A stretch of 60,335 nucleotides of DNA from Patescibacteria group bacterium. GTDB taxonomy: Bacteria; Patescibacteriota; CPR2; UBA1875; JAMCYV01. Position 1 is the stretch's first letter; each line of letters starts with the position of its first letter. The position numbers and the translations under genes were made by a program. The notes below the pieces were generated by a model. It searched no databases, was not told the origin of the DNA, and saw only the letters and a program-made list of their open reading frames with translations. Positions 25,758 through 60,335 of this stretch are shown piece by piece. The stretch lies in contig JAMCYV010000011.1 in the NCBI GenBank assembly GCA_023473595.1, positions 1 to 60,335 on the forward strand, given 5' to 3'.

Positions 25758-25914
25758 AGCTCTTAGCCTTTTTTAAAGGCTAAAATCAAGTAAACAATTT
25801 CAACGAGTTTTTTAGTTTTCAAAACTAAAAACAAACTCTTTTTTGGAGAATTTTTCATCCTACGGATGACCAACCGAAGGTTGGCAGCCTAGTTTGAATT
25901 ACTTTCCATTCTTT

Positions 25915-25957
<43 letters not shown>

Positions 25958-26072
25958 TTAACACATGCAAGTCGTATGCATTTAGGTGCATGGCGAACTG
26001 GTGAGTAGTACATTGGAATCTGCCCCCATCACGGGGATAACCCGCCGAAAGGCGGGATAATACCCGATAGCC

Positions 26073-26207
26073 CCAGCACATATTTGTCATTAATTTGCTA
26101 ACAAAGACGATTCTTGCAAATCTTGTTCTATTACCTCAGGTGTAGAAATCTAGATCAAAATGGCTCATTCGCAAATTAATAAGTCTTTGATGACAAATAT
26201 GTGCTGG
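26073..26207 (+). other. 16S insertion 1 (V2 / helix 9-10 region), ORF-less long hairpin
   Basis: Perfect 18-bp closing stem ccagcacatatttgtcat(26073-26090)/atgacaaatatgtgctgg(26190-26207), between conserved gataatacccgatag and gtaaagttccggcgg. Confidence 0.85.
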
Positions 26208-26281
26208 GTAAAGTTCCGGCGGATGGGGAGGAGCCTTTGTCCTATCAGCTTGTTGGTGGGGTAACGGCCTACCAAGGCTAT

Positions 26282-26316
<35 letters not shown>

Positions 26317-26329
26317 TTGGGACTGAGAT

Positions 26330-26360
<31 letters not shown>

Positions 26361-26477
26361 AGGAATCTTCCGCAATGGGCGCAAGCCTGACGGAGCAACG
26401 CCGCGTGAAGGATGACGGCCTTCGGGTTGTAAACTTCTTTTCTCTGGGAAGATTATGACGGTACCAGAGGAATAAGC

Positions 26478-26521
<44 letters not shown>

Positions 26522-26685
26522 AAGCGTTATCCGGAATTACTGGGCGTAAAGAGTGTGTAGGTGGTGGTCTAAGTCAGATGTTAAATCTCTGGGCTTAACT
26601 CAGAGGCTGCATCTGATACTGGATTGCTAGAGACAAGAAGAGGTAAGCGGAATTCTCGGTGTAGCAGTTAAATGCGTAGATATCG

Positions 26686-26718
<33 letters not shown>

Positions 26719-26752
26719 TCTTGTTCTGACACTGAGACACGAAAGCGTGGGG

Positions 26753-26783
<31 letters not shown>

Positions 26784-26858
26784 CGCTGTAAACGATGCCT
26801 ACTGGCTGTGGGTTTCGACGACCTCGAGATCCGTAGCGAAGCTAACGCGTTAAGTAGG

Positions 26859-26926
<68 letters not shown>

Positions 26927-27023
26927 ACACGTGGTTTAATTCGACTCTAAGCGAAGAACCTTACCGAGGCTTGACATCCTGGGAACCCCGGCGAAAGTCG
27001 GGGGTGCCTTCGGGAACCCAGTG

Positions 27024-27066
<43 letters not shown>

Positions 27067-27139
27067 AGGTTAAGTCCTTTAACGAGCGCAACCCTTGCTC
27101 TGTGTTGTATGTTTCACAGAGGACTGCCCTGGTCAACGG

Positions 27140-27174
<35 letters not shown>

Positions 27175-27403
27175 TCTTACGCCTCGGGCTACACACATGT
27201 TACAATGGCTAGCACAATGGGTCGCGAACCCGCGAGGGGAAGCTAATCTCATCAAAACTAGTCCCAGTTCGGATTGAAGGCTGCAATTCGCCTTCATGAA
27301 GTCGGAATCGCTAGTAACCGTGGGTCAGCAATACCACGGTGAATACGTTCTCGGGTCTTGTACACACCGCCCGTCACACCACGAAAGTTGGTAACATCCG
27401 AAA

Positions 27404-27540
27404 CCCCGCACATATTTTCGATCCAAAACTGCCCAATTTGTCCTAAATATAGTTAGTTTTGATTTGGGCAAAGTGTGGCAAAAGTAAATTATAATTGCAA
27501 AGAGTTTTGGCAGGACAAATTATCGAAACTATGTGCGGGG
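27404..27540 (+). other. 16S insertion 2 (tip of helix 44), ORF-less extended helix
   Basis: ccccgcacat(27404-27413)/atgtgcgggg(27531-27540) closing stem, with further internal pairing (ttcgat/atcgaa, aatttgtcct/aggacaaatt). Confidence 0.85.
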
Positions 27541-27630
27541 TGAAGATGGGACCAGCGATTGGGGTGAAGTCGTAACAAGGTATCCGTAGGGGAATCTGCG
27601 GATGGATCACCTCCTTTCTAAAGGAGAAAT

Positions 27631-27939
27631 CCCGCACCTTTTAGCCCTTGTCGTGAGATTTGTGTAAAATAGCTTTATGTTCTATGTCTATGTATTAAAA
27701 AGCAAAAAAGATCAAAGCATTTACATCGGCTACACGACGGATTTAAGAGGTAGATTTGCTTCTCATAATAACGGTTCTAATAAATCAACCAAAGAAAAGA
27801 AACCATGGGAACTTATCTATTATGAAGCATTCAAAGACCGAACGTTGGCAAAGGAGAGAGAAATTAATCTGAAATATTATGGGAAATCTCTTGGACAACT
27901 TAAAAGAAGGATAGGTCTTTGAGGGTTAAAAGGTGCGGG
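27631..27939 (+). mobile_element. GIY-YIG cassette in the 16S 3' spacer, bounded by a 17-nt inverted repeat
   Basis: cccgcaccttttagccc(27631-27647) against gggttaaaaggtgcggg(27923-27939), 16/17 complementary. Confidence 0.6.
27677..27922 (+). CDS. GIY-YIG nuclease family protein (second copy)
   Basis: FYVYVLKSKKDQSIYIGYTTDLRGRFASHN ... KEREINLK. 81 aa. Confidence 0.8.
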   Translation: MFYVYVLKSKKDQSIYIGYTTDLRGRFASHNNGSNKSTKEKKPWELIYYEAFKDRTLAKEREINLKYYGKSLGQLKRRIGL

Positions 27940-27956
27940 ACAATCCTAGAGGTCGC

Positions 27957-27983
27957 GCTTTCTATCAATATTGGGCTGTCAAA
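27957..27983 (+). promoter_or_regulatory. 3' strand of the pre-16S processing stem
   Basis: gctttctatcaatattgggctgtcaaa pairs with 25731-25757. Confidence 0.7.
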
Positions 27984-28134
27984 TAATTAACAATTCATAC
28001 TTAACAGTAATCGGCAAACAGGGAACATTTCATTGAAAAAATGACTCATAAGAGCTATAATGTTATCTGTTAGTTGCTTACTGTTTTTTGTTTGCTCTCG
28101 ATTTTGAATTATTAATTGATAATTGTTATATTTC

Positions 28135-28211
28135 GGGCGTGTAGCTCAGTTGGTTAGAGCGCGTCACTGATAATGACGAGGTCCCTGGTTCAAATCCAGG
28201 CACGCCCACCA
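28135..28211 (+). tRNA. tRNA-Ile (GAT), CCA encoded
   Basis: Cloverleaf gggcgtg/cacgccc, anticodon loop ctGATaa, T loop ttcaaat. Confidence 0.95.
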
Positions 28212-28217
28212 TAAAGT

Positions 28218-28481
28218 ATGAGCGAACTTTTGCAAAGAATAATTTACGGCTCCTTGGGAATAATCTTCGGCGTTGTCTTGGTTTGGAAATCCCATGAGAT
28301 CGTGAACAATGTCGGCCACAATTATTGGGCCGAAGAACATTTAGGCGAAGGAGGAACCTACAATTTGGTAAGGTTTCTCGGGGTTTTCTTAATGTTTGTC
28401 TTTTTTGCATATATGATAGGAAAATTGGGGGTAGTTTATTTGGCTGTATCAAAGTTTTTCAGAAATCTGATAGGAAGTTAA
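28218..28481 (+). CDS. small two-TM membrane protein encoded between tRNA-Ile and tRNA-Ala
   Basis: 87-aa ORF with two clear hydrophobic segments. ATG lies 6 nt after the tRNA, with no obvious RBS. The antisense 108-aa ORF is R/P-rich and overlaps the tRNA. Confidence 0.4.
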   Translation: MSELLQRIIYGSLGIIFGVVLVWKSHEIVNNVGHNYWAEEHLGEGGTYNLVRFLGVFLMFVFFAYMIGKLGVVYLAVSKFFRNLIGS

Positions 28482-28499
28482 AGAATTGTTAATTATTAT

Positions 28500-28575
28500 G
28501 GGCCCGTAGCTTAGCTGGTAGAGCGCCTGCTTTGCAAGCAGGAGGTCAGGAGTTCGAATCTCCTCGGGTCCACCA
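28500..28575 (+). tRNA. tRNA-Ala (TGC), CCA encoded
   Basis: gggcccg/cgggtcc acceptor with G3:U70, anticodon loop ttTGCaa. Confidence 0.95.
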
Positions 28576-28604
28576 AAGCAAGAGCAAATTTTTATGATAA
28601 ATTG

Positions 28605-28634
28605 AAAAACCCTAGGCAGTAACCTAGGGTTTTT
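28605..28634. terminator. bidirectional hairpin between tRNA-Ala and the convergent P-loop gene
   Basis: aaaaaccctagg(28605-28616)/cctagggttttt(28623-28634), a perfect 12-bp stem with A and T runs on both sides. Confidence 0.75.
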
Positions 28635-29928
28635 CCCTCCAAACCGAGTTTAAGACTTCTCGGCTTTTTTTGTCTTCCTCCAGGAAATGGTTGGGAATGT
28701 ACTGGAAAAGGAGGGCACGGGCGAGAAACTCGAGATATGAATCCCAATTTCTAAGTTTCCTCTTTACTCCGACTAATCTCCCGGTGGTGTAGTGGGAATT
28801 GTAGTATTTTACCAGGGATTCCGGCTTGTCTTCTTCGAGGAGGAGGTAGCTTCTTGCTTCGGCGACATTCTTAATCCCGAAGCTTTTTAAGAGGTTTCGC
28901 CACTCGTTTACCTTCTGCCAGTCGGAAGTAATGATGAGCGCCATATCGATTGTAGAGAGGAGAAGATGAGTTATCTCGTCGATCTTTCCTGGGAGATCGA
29001 CAAAGATAATGTTTTCGGTGAGGCTTTCAAGTTGGACAAGAGCTGGGTAGACTTTTTCAATCTCCCATTTTGTCTTCAAGTCCTTGTGTCGTTCCCGATC
29101 GGTGCCAAGCCCAACGTTAATGAGTTCCAGAGTTGGGCTCCCCAAATCCAAGTCGATGCTACCAACGTTAATCTTAAGGTTGCTGAAATCTGGCCGGCTT
29201 AAAAGCGAGTCCAGTATAACTCGGATTTCGCTAGTGATCGTGGCACAAGAAGTGCTCTTGCCGGAACCGGGTGGTCCGCAAGCCGCGATCCTAATTTGTC
29301 TGTTCTCGAGAAGCCGAACTTTCTCTTCTTCGAAAATCACTCTTTCTACGCCGGTAATTTTCCCGCCTTTCCCAAAGGTATCCCAGGTTGGGATAGTTGT
29401 GTAGTGAAGATTGCGGTCATTCATTACGATGGGAAGCGGTTCCAGACTAGCAGGGGACGGTTCTGGAAGAGCTCTTAGAAGCTCATCAAGAGAGCTTGCG
29501 ATCTTAAGGCAATTGTCTAGCAGGTTGCAGAAGTCGCCTAGGGTTGTAGTCATCGGATTGTAGAAGCATTTGATGTAGTGTTTGAACAGCTTGGGCGAAA
29601 GTCTTCTTCTCGTAAGCTTTTCTTCTACAATCTTTACAACATGGCACTGGGTTGCGTAATAGATAATCTCTCGCGCCAACTTACCTTCCTTGTCCGGTAA
29701 GTTTCGGGAGATTCTATGAAGCTTATGCGCCAGGTCATTGCCAAAGAGGCAGAAAGTAGAAGTTCGAGAGAAAGTTTCAATTGCTTTCACACTTAGCTTC
29801 TCTTTCCTTGCCACCACGACGTTCTCATCAAGCAGGTTTAACCTATGAAGCAGCCAAAAACCAACGGCTGCTAAAAGGCTAGGCTTCTTTGGTACTATTA
29901 CCACGCGTATGGTTTTCAACCACTCCAC
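28624..29928 (-). CDS. P-loop NTPase with a ~210-aa unknown N-terminal domain
   Basis: Walker A ACGPPGSGKST. Downstream IIFVDLPG (Walker B or dynamin-like DxxG). 434 aa. Looks more GC-rich than its surroundings by eye. Confidence 0.8.
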   Translation of the reverse strand: MEWLKTIRVVIVPKKPSLLAAVGFWLLHRLNLLDENVVVARKEKLSVKAIETFSRTSTFCLFGNDLAHKLHRISRNLPDKEGKLAREIIYYATQCHVVKIVEEKLTRRRLSPKLFKHYIKCFYNPMTTTLGDFCNLLDNCLKIASSLDELLRALPEPSPASLEPLPIVMNDRNLHYTTIPTWDTFGKGGKITGVERVIFEEEKVRLLENRQIRIAACGPPGSGKSTSCATITSEIRVILDSLLSRPDFSNLKINVGSIDLDLGSPTLELINVGLGTDRERHKDLKTKWEIEKVYPALVQLESLTENIIFVDLPGKIDEITHLLLSTIDMALIITSDWQKVNEWRNLLKSFGIKNVAEARSYLLLEEDKPESLVKYYNSHYTTGRLVGVKRKLRNWDSYLEFLARALLFQYIPNHFLEEDKKSREVLNSVWREKP

Positions 29929-30076
29929 CTCCTAAGATTTGTACTACTGTCTTTTGTAAATGTGCACTTTCTGTTTTGTTTGTGCGGTAATTATAGCATA
30001 ATAATAATCTTATGGGAATACTAAATTCCTGGTAACTAAAACTTCTTTTTGTGTTATGATTTGCATTGAGATTTAA

Positions 30077-30152
30077 GGGCCTGTAGCTCAGTTGGCAGAG
30101 CGCCGCATTCGCATTGCGGAGGTCGTCGGTTCAACTCCGATCAGGTCCACCA
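30077..30152 (+). tRNA. tRNA-Ala (CGC), CCA encoded
   Basis: gggcctg/caggtcc acceptor with G3:U70, anticodon loop ttCGCat. Confidence 0.93.
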
Positions 30153-38531: not shown

Positions 38532-38618
38532 GCGGACGTGGCGGAATTGGTATACGCGCAAGCTTGAGGTGCTTGTGGGAGTAATCCTGTGGAGGTTCAA
38601 GTCCTCTCGTCCGCACCA
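38532..38618 (+). tRNA. tRNA-Leu (GAG), CCA encoded
   Basis: gcggacg/cgtccgc acceptor, loop ttGAGgt, long variable arm. Confidence 0.92.
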
Positions 38619-38663
38619 TTTTTTAATTGTCAATTGTCAATTATTAATTAATAATTATTGAAG

Positions 38664-38740
38664 GGGCGCTTAGCTCAGTTGGCTAGAGCGACTGGTTTAC
38701 ACCCAGTAGGTCATAGGTTCGAGTCCTATAGCGCCCACCA
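38664..38740 (+). tRNA. tRNA-Val (TAC), CCA encoded
   Basis: gggcgct/agcgccc acceptor, loop ttTACac. Confidence 0.92.
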
Positions 38741-38939
38741 TTTTTCGCCACAGCGAAAAATGCCCTTCCGAAGCTTTAGCGGAGGAGGGCAATTAACACT
38801 TAGAGCAACTTTAAAAAAAGGCTTCAAATGGCAGGCCAAAAATTGTCTGAGCTACGCTTGGGGGCCAGTAAAATTGGGAGCGAAGTTTGTCCTTCGTAGC
38901 TTTAGCGGAGAATGGACATTATAATATAAATCAATATAT
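38741..38939. repeat. GC-rich palindromic repeats between tRNA genes
   Basis: gcccttccgaagctttagcggaggagggc and gtccttcgtagctttagcggagaatggac share ccttcNNagctttagcggag. The region also contains gagctacgcttgggggccag. Confidence 0.6.
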
Positions 38940-39015
38940 GCCGAGATAGCTCAGTTGGTAGAGCACAGGACTGAAAATCCTGGTGTCCCCGGTTCGATCC
39001 CGGGTCTCGGCACCA
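38940..39015 (+). tRNA. tRNA-Phe (GAA), CCA encoded
   Basis: gccgaga/tctcggc acceptor, loop ctGAAaa. Confidence 0.95.
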
Positions 39016-39016
39016 T

Positions 39017-39091
39017 GCGGGTGTCGTATAGTGGTTATTACATGGCCTTGCCAAGGCTAAAACGGCGGTTCGATTCCGCTCACCCGCTCCA
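39017..39091 (+). tRNA. tRNA-Gly (GCC), CCA encoded
   Basis: gcgggtg/cacccgc acceptor, loop ttGCCaa. Starts 1 nt after tRNA-Phe. Confidence 0.9.
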
Positions 39092-39119
39092 TAAGATAAA
39101 AGTATGAGTGGGGCCTTTT

Positions 39120-39245
39120 TAGGAGAGGTTCTCACCCTGCGGGCGATCAGCCGTAGGCTGAGAATCCCGTTTCCCGCTCCAATTTATATTTGGCCTCGTG
39201 GCGGATCCGCCTTCGCCAGAGGCTTCGTTCGGACAAGGTGGCTTA
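39120..39245. repeat. GC-rich palindromic repeats between tRNA-Gly and tRNA-Cys
   Basis: gttctcaccctgcgggcgatcagccgtaggctgagaatc, and ggcggatccgccttcgccagaggcttcgttcggacaaggtggc. Confidence 0.5.
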
Positions 39246-39252
39246 TATTTAT

Positions 39253-39326
39253 GGCGTTGTGGCCGAGTAGCTAGGCAACGGTCTGCAAAACCGTTTACCC
39301 GGGTGCAAATCCCGGCAACGCCTCCA
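39253..39326 (+). tRNA. tRNA-Cys (GCA), CCA encoded
   Basis: ggcgttg/caacgcc acceptor, stem acggt/accgt, loop ctGCAaa. Confidence 0.9.
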
Positions 39327-39394
39327 AGGTTCAACAAAGTTGAACGCTTGTAGCTAATAGCTATTGGTTACTGGCTACAAGTAATCGATTCTTT

Positions 39395-39481
39395 GCCGCG
39401 GTGGCGGAACCGGTATACGCGCATGACTTAAAATCATGTGACCGAAAGGTCTTGGGAGTTCGAGTCTCCCCCGCGGCACCA
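39395..39481 (+). tRNA. tRNA-Leu (TAA), CCA encoded
   Basis: gccgcgg/ccgcggc acceptor, loop ctTAAaa, long variable arm. Confidence 0.92.
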
Positions 39482-50857: not shown

Positions 50858-50894
50858 GGAAGAAATAAAAACAAAAACGCATAATTTTTCAACA

Positions 50895-51006
50895 CGTCAT
50901 CCTGAACTTGCCTGCCCGATCGTAGTCAGGCGAAGGCGGGATTCAGGACCCACAACTATCTTTTTTAGATTAAATAATAGATTCCAAATCAAGTTTGGAA
51001 TGACAA
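50895..51006 (+). repeat. TGTCAT-type element with inverse termini (copy e)
   Basis: gtcatcctgaa...ttcaggac hairpin, then attccaaa-tcaag-tttggaat followed by gaca. Fills the gatC-gatA spacer. Confidence 0.6.
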
Positions 51007-51016
51007 GTTAGAGCTT

Positions 51017-52498
51017 ATGAAACTTAATGAGTTAGACATAGTACAGGCGGCGGAGGGGCTAAAGAAAGGCGAGTTTAGTTCGGTTGATTTGACGCAGGTT
51101 TGTTTGGAGGTGATAAAAAAGTTGAATCCGGAAATCAATGCTTTTATTACTATTACAGAAGATTTGGCTTTAAATCAGGCGAAAGAGAGCGATGCCAGGC
51201 GGAAAATGGGAAACTCAAGGGGTATTCTGGATGGGATTCCGGTAGCTATAAAAGACAATATTGCTGTGAAAGATTACCCGACAACAGCCGCTTCGAAGAT
51301 TTTGGAAAATTATATTACTGTTGAAGACGCCTTTGTTATAAAAAAACTCAAAGAAGCTGGGGCAGTCATTTTAGGGAAGACTAATCTTGATGAATTCGCC
51401 TGCGGCGGCTCGACAGAGACTTCTTACTTTGAGACGACTAAAAATCCTATTGATCATTCAAGGGTTCCGGGCGGTTCTTCTGGTGGCTCGGCAGCGGCTG
51501 TGGCAGCCGACATGTGTATTTATGCAATTGGTTCGGACACCGGCGGATCAATCCGCCAGCCAGCTTCATATTGCGGGATTGTGGGCTTAAAGCCGACTTA
51601 TGGGGCGGTCTCACGGAATGGGCTTTTTGCGATGGCTTCAAGTTTGGATCAAATTGGCCCTTTAACTAAAACTGTCGAAGATGCTTTCATTGTTTTAAAA
51701 GAATTAGCAAAATATGATGAAAAAGACAGTACTTCGAATAAAAAAGGCGAGGAAACTATTCAAAAAATTGTTGATTTGAAGGGGGTTAAAGGGCTTAAAG
51801 TAGGCATTTTAAAGCAAGGAAAGGTAGCAAACGTTCAAGCAGGAATAAAAAATGATTTGGAGAAGGCGGTTCAAAAATTAAAAGCGGCGGGGGCTCAAGT
51901 TACCGAATTAAATCTTCCGATTCTCGATTATGCCTTGGCAGTCTATTACATCTTGATGCCGGTAGAAGTGAGTTCGAATTTAGGCCGTTATGACGGGATA
52001 AAGTACGGTTACTCCGTAGCCCTCCTTCGCGACGCTACGGAAGGGCAAGCAAGTAGCAAGGAAACAGTAGCAAGGAATTTGGAGGAAGTTTACTTCAAGA
52101 CGAGAGCGGAAGGCTTCGGAGATGAAGTAAAGCGCCGAATTATGCTGGGAGCTTATGCCTCTTCGGCAGGATATTTTGACCAGTATTATTTAAAAGCCCA
52201 AAAAGTGAGAGCGATTATCAAGAAAGAAATTGATGATGCTTTCAAAAAATTCGACTGTCTTCTTTTACCGACAACACCGACGACAGCCTTTAAAATCAGC
52301 GAGAAAACCAAAGACCCAATCATGATGTATTTGGAAGACATATTTACGGTACCGGCGAATATTGCCGGGATTCCTGGAATTAGTGTTCCTTTTGGCAAGG
52401 AAGGGAATCTGCCTTTTGGAATTCAAGTTTTAGGGCCAGAGTTCGGTGAAGAGAAACTATTGAATGTAGCCAAGGCTTTGGAGGAAGCAGATGGGTAA
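51017..52498 (+). CDS. gatA: Asp/Glu-tRNA amidotransferase subunit A
   Basis: Amidase signature GGSSGGSAAAVA, GSDTGGSIRQPA, EGFGDEVKRRIMLG. Confidence 0.96.
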   Translation: MKLNELDIVQAAEGLKKGEFSSVDLTQVCLEVIKKLNPEINAFITITEDLALNQAKESDARRKMGNSRGILDGIPVAIKDNIAVKDYPTTAASKILENYITVEDAFVIKKLKEAGAVILGKTNLDEFACGGSTETSYFETTKNPIDHSRVPGGSSGGSAAAVAADMCIYAIGSDTGGSIRQPASYCGIVGLKPTYGAVSRNGLFAMASSLDQIGPLTKTVEDAFIVLKELAKYDEKDSTSNKKGEETIQKIVDLKGVKGLKVGILKQGKVANVQAGIKNDLEKAVQKLKAAGAQVTELNLPILDYALAVYYILMPVEVSSNLGRYDGIKYGYSVALLRDATEGQASSKETVARNLEEVYFKTRAEGFGDEVKRRIMLGAYASSAGYFDQYYLKAQKVRAIIKKEIDDAFKKFDCLLLPTTPTTAFKISEKTKDPIMMYLEDIFTVPANIAGIPGISVPFGKEGNLPFGIQVLGPEFGEEKLLNVAKALEEADG

Positions 52499-60255: not shown

Positions 60256-60335
60256 TAAGAACTAAATTCTAATAACTAATAAAATCCTAATTTTTAAATT
60301 TTAAACATTTATTAGTTATTAGAATTTAGTTCTTA
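60256..60335. repeat. 28-bp perfect palindrome running to the window edge
   Basis: taagaactaaattctaataactaataaa(60256-60283) against tttattagttattagaatttagttctta(60308-60335), with a 24-nt loop. Confidence 0.85.

Follow-up and report, generated by a model that had tools for sequence, protein, structure and literature searches.

Several families of palindromic elements are co-transcribed with bacterial genes, namely Correia/NEMIS in Neisseria, ERIC in enterobacteria, REP/BIME in E. coli and the Rickettsia palindromic elements (RPEs), of which Correia is cut by RNase III and RPEs are tolerated inside functional genes. Correia elements show TA duplication and conserved interiors, and REPs are units of 20-40 nt with a conserved 5' tetranucleotide, moved by RAYT, whose genes lie between the same palindromes. 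GIY-YIG homing endonucleases may be free-standing or intron-borne; those of the I-TevI type have a long DNA-binding domain and reside in self-splicing introns, and a perfect stem of about 19 bp is a classical substrate of RNase III. In rRNA genes, intervening sequences (IVSs) of roughly 100-400 nt occur in ORF-less and ORF-bearing versions and are regarded as selfish, being tolerated since they are cut from the precursor (PMC4990558). In the candidate phyla radiation (CPR, Patescibacteria), about half of the 16S genes and four fifths of the 23S genes carry insertions, and the short ORF-less ones are unexplained (PMC11270868); those that are not introns are termed 'uncharacterized' in the same study, which suggests RNase III-cut IVSs for them and also records GIY-YIG ORFs in non-intron insertions of CPR rRNA (PMC11270868). 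According to PMC9297842, which cites Brown 2015 on this point, transcripts are predicted to lack most of the CPR rRNA insertions. CPR RNase P RNA has large extensions of peripheral helices, which have been described only as diverged structure (Lui 2021, PMC8172020).

Here we investigated a hairpin at the tip of 16S rRNA helix 44 (h44) in a 60,335-nt stretch of Patescibacteria DNA, referred to below as the window. The object is an IVS-like and MITE-like palindromic insertion, and on balance we consider it probable that it is a non-autonomous member of a palindromic hairpin family of Patescibacteria, which would have spread in connection with nuclease cassettes and would be excised by RNase III. 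To judge from the sequences, this hairpin family of palindromic insertion elements of Patescibacteria/CPR appears to be previously undescribed, and our full-text literature search found no paper on a shared terminal stem, on copies in RNase P RNA or spacers, or on a link between ORF-less and GIY-YIG-bearing insertions. The features of the locus and the RNase P RNA sites of family members are collected in Table 1.

Table 1. Features of the 16S rRNA locus in the window and family members in RNase P RNA genes of other loci
Feature	Position or site	Strand	Remarks
16S rRNA host gene	25911-27617	+	1707 nt including both hairpins; Rfam RF00177, 1502.8 bits, full length
Sister element, 137-nt hairpin in 16S helix 9 (V2)	26072-26208	+	Basal stem CCCAGCACATATTTGTCAT (19-22 bp)
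ORF-less hairpin element at h44 tip	27404-27540	+	137 nt; replaces tip of 16S helix 44
h44 element basal stem, 5' arm CCCCGCACATATTTTCGAT	27404-27422	+	First 15 nt are the family consensus
h44 element basal stem, 3' arm ATCGAAACTATGTGCGGGG	27522-27540	+	One mismatch against the 5' arm
Hairpin-bracketed GIY-YIG cassette	27630-27940	+	Starts 12 nt past the 16S 3' end, in the 16S-tRNA spacer
Cassette arms	TCCCGCACCTTTTAGCCCT 27630-27648; AGGGTTAAAAGGTGCGGGA 27922-27940	+	19-bp inverted repeat
81-aa GIY-YIG nuclease ORF (UPF0213-like)	27677-27922	+	Pfam GIY-YIG, E=1.2e-18
L034	RNase P RNA P3 and P12		Stem present (Rfam alignments, sequence)
L041	RNase P RNA P3, P9 and junction between P2 and P4 3' strands		Stem present (Rfam alignments, sequence)
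L008	RNase P RNA P2/P4 junction		Stem present (Rfam alignments, sequence)

In a focused Rfam alignment of the 16S 3' domain, GAAACCCCG-CACAUA is followed by an insert of 116 nt and then by AUGUGCGGGGUGAAG, which places the insert between model positions 1438 and 1439, i.e., at the tip of h44. In this alignment, CCGAAACCCCG-CACAUA precedes the 116 unaligned nucleotides and AUGUGCGGGGUGAAG comes after them. The palindromic block itself, from CCCC to GGGG, measures exactly 137 nt (27404-27540), in agreement with the original prediction of a second insertion of about 137 nt at this tip. Folded alone, the element forms one long imperfect hairpin (-49.5 kcal/mol, z=-6.8), also as proposed, and in context it is predicted to stack on the retained lower two thirds of h44. 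Its flanks are GAAA on the left and TGAAG on the right, without a direct repeat, and it resembles an IVS in that the tip of a variable helix is replaced and a long double-stranded stem closes the insertion. Searching 27395-27950 against Rfam at E<=5 returned SSU rRNA only, with no intron or other family matching the h44 element; group I and group II introns were rejected, as no covariance model matched and a ribozyme core would not fit into 137 nt.

The distal tip of h44 is often or usually missing in CPR bacteria (PMC9297842), therefore we regard the block as an addition. The insertion touches this distal tip only and leaves the decoding end of the helix unaffected, so that its significance for the decoding centre had been overstated. 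The cccc and gggg at its borders, earlier taken for host flanks, belong to the element, because intergenic copies and the comparison of filled and empty RNase P sites show them to be its own ends. Among the nine contexts of GIY-YIG homologues first examined, none adjoins an intact h44 and none provided a relative's 16S gene with an empty or filled h44; in L071 the 16S 3' end is present, but an intron interrupts the gene at about position 1400.

The first insertion in the same gene, CCCAGC...GCTGGG, spans exactly 137 nt (26072-26208), the same length as the h44 copy, and folds at -45.9 kcal/mol (z about -7). By our reading of the Rfam alignment in E. coli numbering, its site appears to be the hairpin just 5' of the conserved UAAAG, i.e., helix 9 (h9) in V2, and the position assigned to it earlier has been corrected accordingly. 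The two hairpins have a common basal stem (CCCNGCACATATTT / TATGTGCNGGG), with 13 of the terminal 14 nt identical at the 5' end and 12 of 14 at the 3' end. The 14-mer CCCMGCACATATTT, allowing at most one mismatch, matches the 60-kb window at the four arms and nowhere else, giving four matches against 0.03 expected, and none of 100 shuffles reached four; the shared ends are therefore not a by-product of AT-richness, and the common terminal motif that had been pointed out is real. The 109-nt interiors are 24% identical, and their local alignment in either orientation stayed at shuffle level (p=0.39 and 0.82), which disposes of a reverse-orientation similarity between the two insertions. A pairwise and structural comparison thus found arms and length shared and both copies folding, with unrelated interiors, so that the two are not recent duplicates. 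The original prediction of one mobile family that landed twice in this gene is partly supported, namely as regards the family and its signs of DNA mobility, and its rejection of independent helix expansions was correct, since the basal stem defines a sequence family present in many places and genomes.

The h9 interior resembles that of the L041 copy in RNase P P9 (p=0.001), and the h9 copy, L034 P12 and L008 have a layout in common, consisting of a stem of about 19 bp, a 5' bulge of 11-12 nt and a CAAAGAC/GTCTTTG stem. The h44 interior showed no significant similarity to any of the stable-RNA copies compared (best z about 0), and a grouping by eye of h44 with the L041 P3 and junction copies as a 'subfamily 2' (bulge CCAAAAC, then an AATTT stem) was discarded as not significant. 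We would thus place the h44 copy in the family on the basis of its 15-nt arm, its length and its position.

The family was defined by a basal stem of the form CCC(A/C)GCACATATTT.../...AAATATGTGC(T/G)GGG, 14-21 bp long and strictly Watson-Crick, around a variable interior of about 70-110 nt. This CCCNGCACATATTT family comprises more than 30 stem-closed hairpins of 67-144 nt from Patescibacteria genomes and metagenomes, the lengths being 125-144 nt plus one 67-nt copy. We scanned 185,579 species genomes, one per bacterial or archaeal species, with the pattern GCACATATTT-N(97-127)-TATGTGCNGGG and obtained 17 loci. Six lie in Patescibacteria/Paceibacterota/Niyogibacteria genomes, and each of these also carries a 5' CCC/CCT and a perfect inverted repeat of 17-21 bp, neither of which the pattern required; the other 11 possess neither and are chance matches. 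About 20 more true members came from a metagenome scan, and shorter or variant copies from a relaxed local search. The contig of the window itself was returned by neither the genome scan nor the metagenome scan. On viral contigs we found two chance matches to one arm only, without the partner arm. The search for the boundary motif thus recovered copies in other genomes and metagenomes and none in the other 58 kb of the window, where a possible degenerate copy at 51787-51898 lies inside gatA and is a chance match. The h44 copy shows the family features, with a consensus 5' arm, a complementary 3' arm, a length of 137 nt, no ORF and a single long hairpin. Its arm at 27404-27418, CCCCGCACATATTTT, is identical to those of L008, L012, L021b and L035, and its terminal inverted repeats measure 19 bp with one mismatch, those of other copies being perfect over 17-21 bp.

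The family colonizes stable-RNA genes at helix tips and in linkers (in 16S rRNA h9 and h44, and four sites in RNase P RNA, namely P3, P9, P12 and the P2/P4 junction) as well as transcribed operon spacers. Spacers with copies include rplX/rplE, rpsG/fusA, rpsM/rpsK/rpsD, rplC/rpsJ, rplK/nusG, ssb/rpsR, gatC/gatA, mraZ/rsmH and others. All 19 spacer copies have the same polarity with respect to transcription, lying between ...AAACCTTTA on the left and TGCTCAAT... on the right, and the spacer copies directly abut two other strong hairpins, forming three-hairpin arrays upstream of start codons. A second type of hairpin (CCCAGCACTCAGCA...TGCTGAGTGCTGGG) occupies the array slot between AACCTTTA and TGCTCAAT at L004 1432-1525 and L046 7171-7265, therefore the slot takes different hairpins that share only CCCAGCAC. 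The 205-nt gatC-gatA spacer of the window holds a different, G+C-rich hairpin (CATCCTGAACTTGCCTGCCC...GGCGGGATTCAGGA, 50890-50951), unlike the gatC-gatA spacer of L007, which contains a CCCAGCACATATTT family member. A 3' flank of U(A/G)A(A)G(G) type recurs at 16S h9, 16S h44 and RNase P P12 and P9 and is missing at P3 and the P2/P4 junction, so that the target preference proposed for the element is only suggested by the four sites that have it.

Four types of result indicate that the family moves at the DNA level, as far as sequence comparison can reveal. In an alignment of four related RNase P genes, none of the four sites was uniform, each being occupied in part of the genes and empty in the rest. 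At P3 and P12, where the empty sites are comparable, the native hairpin tip was replaced rather than split and no target-site duplication arose; such duplications were found at none of the more than 25 copies. Copies occur in either orientation, as illustrated by the P3 and junction copies of L041, which reach 72% identity only after one of them has been reverse-complemented (z=9). They can also be multi-copy and near-identical: at six loci with different neighbouring genes the copies differ by 0-2 of 125 nt, and a copy from another genome differs from these six by 12-13 nt. Across 26 distinct copies and 20 basal pairs, 93% of the stem cells are paired, both partners have changed in 13 of the 20 pairs, and there are hardly any one-sided (G-U) changes. 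Arms that co-vary almost without G-U are more readily explained as a DNA palindrome than as an RNA stem maintained by folding alone.

No transposase was found, and the search for an autonomous partner with the same ends yielded only GIY-YIG cassettes with partly matching ends (CCCCGCAC and a shared 3' subterminal block). The nuclease encoded by the window cassette matches PDB entries 1zg2 and 1ywl, both UPF0213 proteins, and has 644 homologues, the named ones mostly from Patescibacteria; the outer end of this cassette, CCCGCAC, matches the ends of the 16S hairpins. Of 13 small GIY-YIG ORFs examined, 12 are bracketed by inverted repeats of 13-22 bp with outer ends CCCC(N)CAC. Stems related to the family (CCCCGCACC...) bracket small GIY-YIG genes at the very RNase P sites used by ORF-less copies, i.e., P3 in L077 (the closest homologue), P12 in L057 and the P2/P4 junction in L054, where the cassette flanks (GATAGATGGTCATC and ACAGAACCCGG) are exactly those that hold an ORF-less copy in L008. 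Other GIY-YIG cassettes abut the 5' ends of tRNA genes. In L062, L066, L071 and L072 (around 2480-2780 each), the tRNA begins with the GGGG of the right arm, and an incomplete copy of its 5' end (e.g., GGGGTGATTAG) precedes the left arm.

A block A(A/G)GTCTTTG(A) is situated exactly 18-20 nt from the 3' end in the ORF-less copies at window h9, L041 P9, L034 P12 and L008, and at the same position in the window, L054 and L077 cassettes it constitutes the last ORF codons and the stop, which suggests that at least the ORF-less subgroup carrying the block arose from cassettes by internal deletion. Between ORF-less copies and cassettes the resemblance does not extend beyond roughly the 5'-terminal 8 nt and the 3'-terminal 30 nt, and whole-interior alignments of the two were not significant apart from the 3' subterminal block. 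The encoded protein of about 84 aa has no obvious DNA-recognition domain, and to our knowledge GIY-YIG proteins do not act as transposases. Two further hairpins were observed: in L078 (about 1845-1930) an ORF-less hairpin (CCCCTATACTAATTGAGCAG...CTGCTCGATTAGTATAGGGG) directly follows a GIY-YIG cassette with related arms (CCCCCACACTAAT...), and 16S helix 9 of L007 (893-967) holds a hairpin of 75 nt whose closing stem, CCCCTCAC.../...GTGAGGGG, is of the type seen in many GIY-YIG cassettes.

Several other features of these loci were recorded. The 16S gene of the window is followed (27617-30152), after the cassette, by tRNA-Ile(GAT), an 87-aa ORF (28218-28481), tRNA-Ala(TGC), a minus-strand gene for a 434-aa P-loop protein and tRNA-Ala(CGC). 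The 137-aa protein upstream of the 16S gene has no homologue besides itself. Rfam detected no 23S gene anywhere in the 60-kb window, and the rRNA genes appear to be unlinked here, an arrangement described in many CPR bacteria (PMC8172020). Within 950 nt at 38532-39481 there is a group of six tRNA genes (Leu, Val, Phe, Gly, Cys, Leu), and at 60256-60335 a perfect inverted repeat of 28 nt (TAAGAACTAAATTCTAATAACTAATAAA), the loop of which measures 24 nt, touches the window end. L007 contains a tRNA gene (1807-1908) between 12-bp inverted repeats, CCCCCACACCAT/ATGGTGTGGGGG. In L066, a 239-aa ORF for a RAYT-like Y1 (HUH) transposase (1566-2337) lies in the rRNA-operon spacer between REP-like palindromes, and the interrupted 16S gene upstream of it has group II intron domains and a LAGLIDADG ORF.

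How such elements may spread and be tolerated can be outlined from these comparisons. The ORF-less hairpins would descend from, or move together with, cassettes that carry the nuclease of about 84 aa, which would make a break that is then filled by copying or gene conversion; such a break-and-repair route would account for the replacement of native sequence in the absence of a duplication. The h44 element would be co-transcribed in pre-16S rRNA, where its stem of about 19 bp would form double-stranded RNA, most likely cut by RNase III. The hairpin would then be lost in the manner of a classical rRNA IVS, and the 16S rRNA would carry nicks at h9 and at the tip of h44, with the decoding part of h44 presumably untouched. 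We prefer such IVS-like excision because the stem is an RNase III-type substrate and because CPR insertions are described as mostly absent from transcripts (PMC9297842, PMC11270868). A bolder proposal, which we put forward tentatively and rate below an even chance, is that these hairpins represent a new mobile class, a DNA hairpin whose autonomous form would carry nothing but a minimal GIY-YIG nuclease of about 84 aa between strictly complementary arms with CCCC(N)CAC outer ends. Its ORF-less derivatives would repeatedly have taken the place of helix tips in 16S rRNA and RNase P RNA, probably also in 23S rRNA, and filled operon spacers, and the arms would double as an RNA processing stem that lets the host RNA survive.

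Hairpin excision has to be weighed against retention of the element in mature 16S as an expansion segment, the conserved stem of which would bind a lineage-specific protein. Eukaryotic ES3S and ES12S occupy the regions corresponding to V2 and the h44 tip and offer an analogue, and retention would accommodate the use of one stem in two stable RNAs at five to six solvent-exposed helix positions and the conservation, across genomes, of the stem sequence beyond its pairing. We nevertheless think retention unlikely, as the interiors are unconstrained, both orientations occur, sites are filled or empty among close relatives, many copies lie in mRNA spacers, and strict Watson-Crick arms without G-U are atypical of stems selected as RNA; moreover, the published transcript comparisons point to mature rRNA that lacks most CPR insertions (PMC9297842). 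The polarity shared by all 19 intergenic copies, the three-hairpin arrays upstream of start codons and the bracketing of the L007 tRNA gene (1807-1908) and of GIY-YIG ORFs by similar stems would also be expected if CCCNGCAC were a host ribonuclease signal that releases tRNA, mRNA and spacer units and not selfish mobile DNA. This seems rather improbable to us, since it accounts neither for copies inside mature-RNA helices and inverted copies within one RNase P gene nor for differences of 0-2 nt at six loci, the ORF-end remnant and the missing G-U. The uniform spacer polarity and the stem-bracketed tRNA could nonetheless point to a role of the stems at the RNA level, and the processing and mobile readings can coexist in a mobile element with its own processing stem.

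A classical MITE (miniature inverted-repeat transposable element), mobilized by a DDE or HUH transposase that acts in trans and binds the terminal inverted repeats, with the GIY-YIG genes as unrelated passengers, would share the perfect terminal inverted repeats of 17-21 bp, the length of 125-144 bp and the multi-copy, near-identical members, and a RAYT-like Y1 transposase ORF does adjoin the GIY-YIG cassette in L066. That ORF is flanked by a different palindrome, GAGGGTCWGACCCTC; it was discarded as the mobilizer for this reason, and so was movement as REP/BIME by RAYT, no other RAYT-like ORF having been seen. Together with the lack of target-site duplication at more than 25 copies, the absence of any transposase gene with such ends among those seen and the replacement rather than interruption of native hairpins, this renders the MITE explanation quite improbable. 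The unrelated interiors of the two 16S hairpins would fit independent helix expansions with ends that became similar by chance or convergence in AT-rich sequence, an idea refuted by the excess of the 14-mer (4 against 0.03 expected) and by identical arms in dozens of elements of other genomes, and to which we assign practically no weight.

Altogether, we retain the reading of the h44 hairpin as a member of a mobile palindromic family, which can be placed among the known systems as follows. Like Correia/NEMIS, ERIC and RPEs, its members are palindromes of 100-150 bp in transcribed regions that form long RNA hairpins, and the BIME-like mosaics of several hairpins resemble the three-hairpin spacer arrays; unlike Correia, the family shows no duplication and has variable interiors. 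We know of no Correia, ERIC, REP or RPE element with GIY-YIG cassette ends or with systematic occupancy of rRNA and RNase P helices. With I-TevI it has in common that a GIY-YIG domain is encoded inside an insertion in a conserved gene, but here a bare catalytic domain of about 84 aa (UPF0213-like) sits inside a plain hairpin. As in the rRNA IVSs of Salmonella 23S helix 25/45 and Coxiella burnetii (PMC4990558), a helix tip is replaced, the stem is long, and filled and empty sites are sporadic. Unlike in IVSs, one stem sequence is used at two sites of 16S, at four of RNase P RNA and in mRNA spacers, and the associated ORF encodes a GIY-YIG nuclease rather than the S23p / 23S_rRNA_IVP protein. 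The 'uncharacterized' CPR insertions of Brown 2015 and Tsurumaki 2024 (PMC11270868) come from the same organisms and are likewise shorter than 200 bp, ORF-less, non-intron and located at helix tips; the two surveys are not known to describe a terminal stem common to the insertions, a connection of ORF-less with GIY-YIG forms, or copies beyond rRNA. The extensions described by Lui 2021 (PMC8172020) concern the same bacteria and the same type of helices, and a repeated sequence or a relation to rRNA insertions is not noted there.

A searchable terminal stem thus ties together rRNA insertions, RNase P helix extensions, abundant intergenic hairpins and very common small GIY-YIG genes, and replaces a descriptive oddity by a model that can be tested, in which a selfish element has adapted to life inside essential structural RNAs. 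In practice, it allows the inserts to be recognized and masked during annotation and alignment of CPR rRNA and RNase P genes and in the design of primers for them. If the model is true, a GIY-YIG-hairpin class would explain a large share of the short rRNA insertions of CPR bacteria and of the helix extensions in their RNase P RNA.
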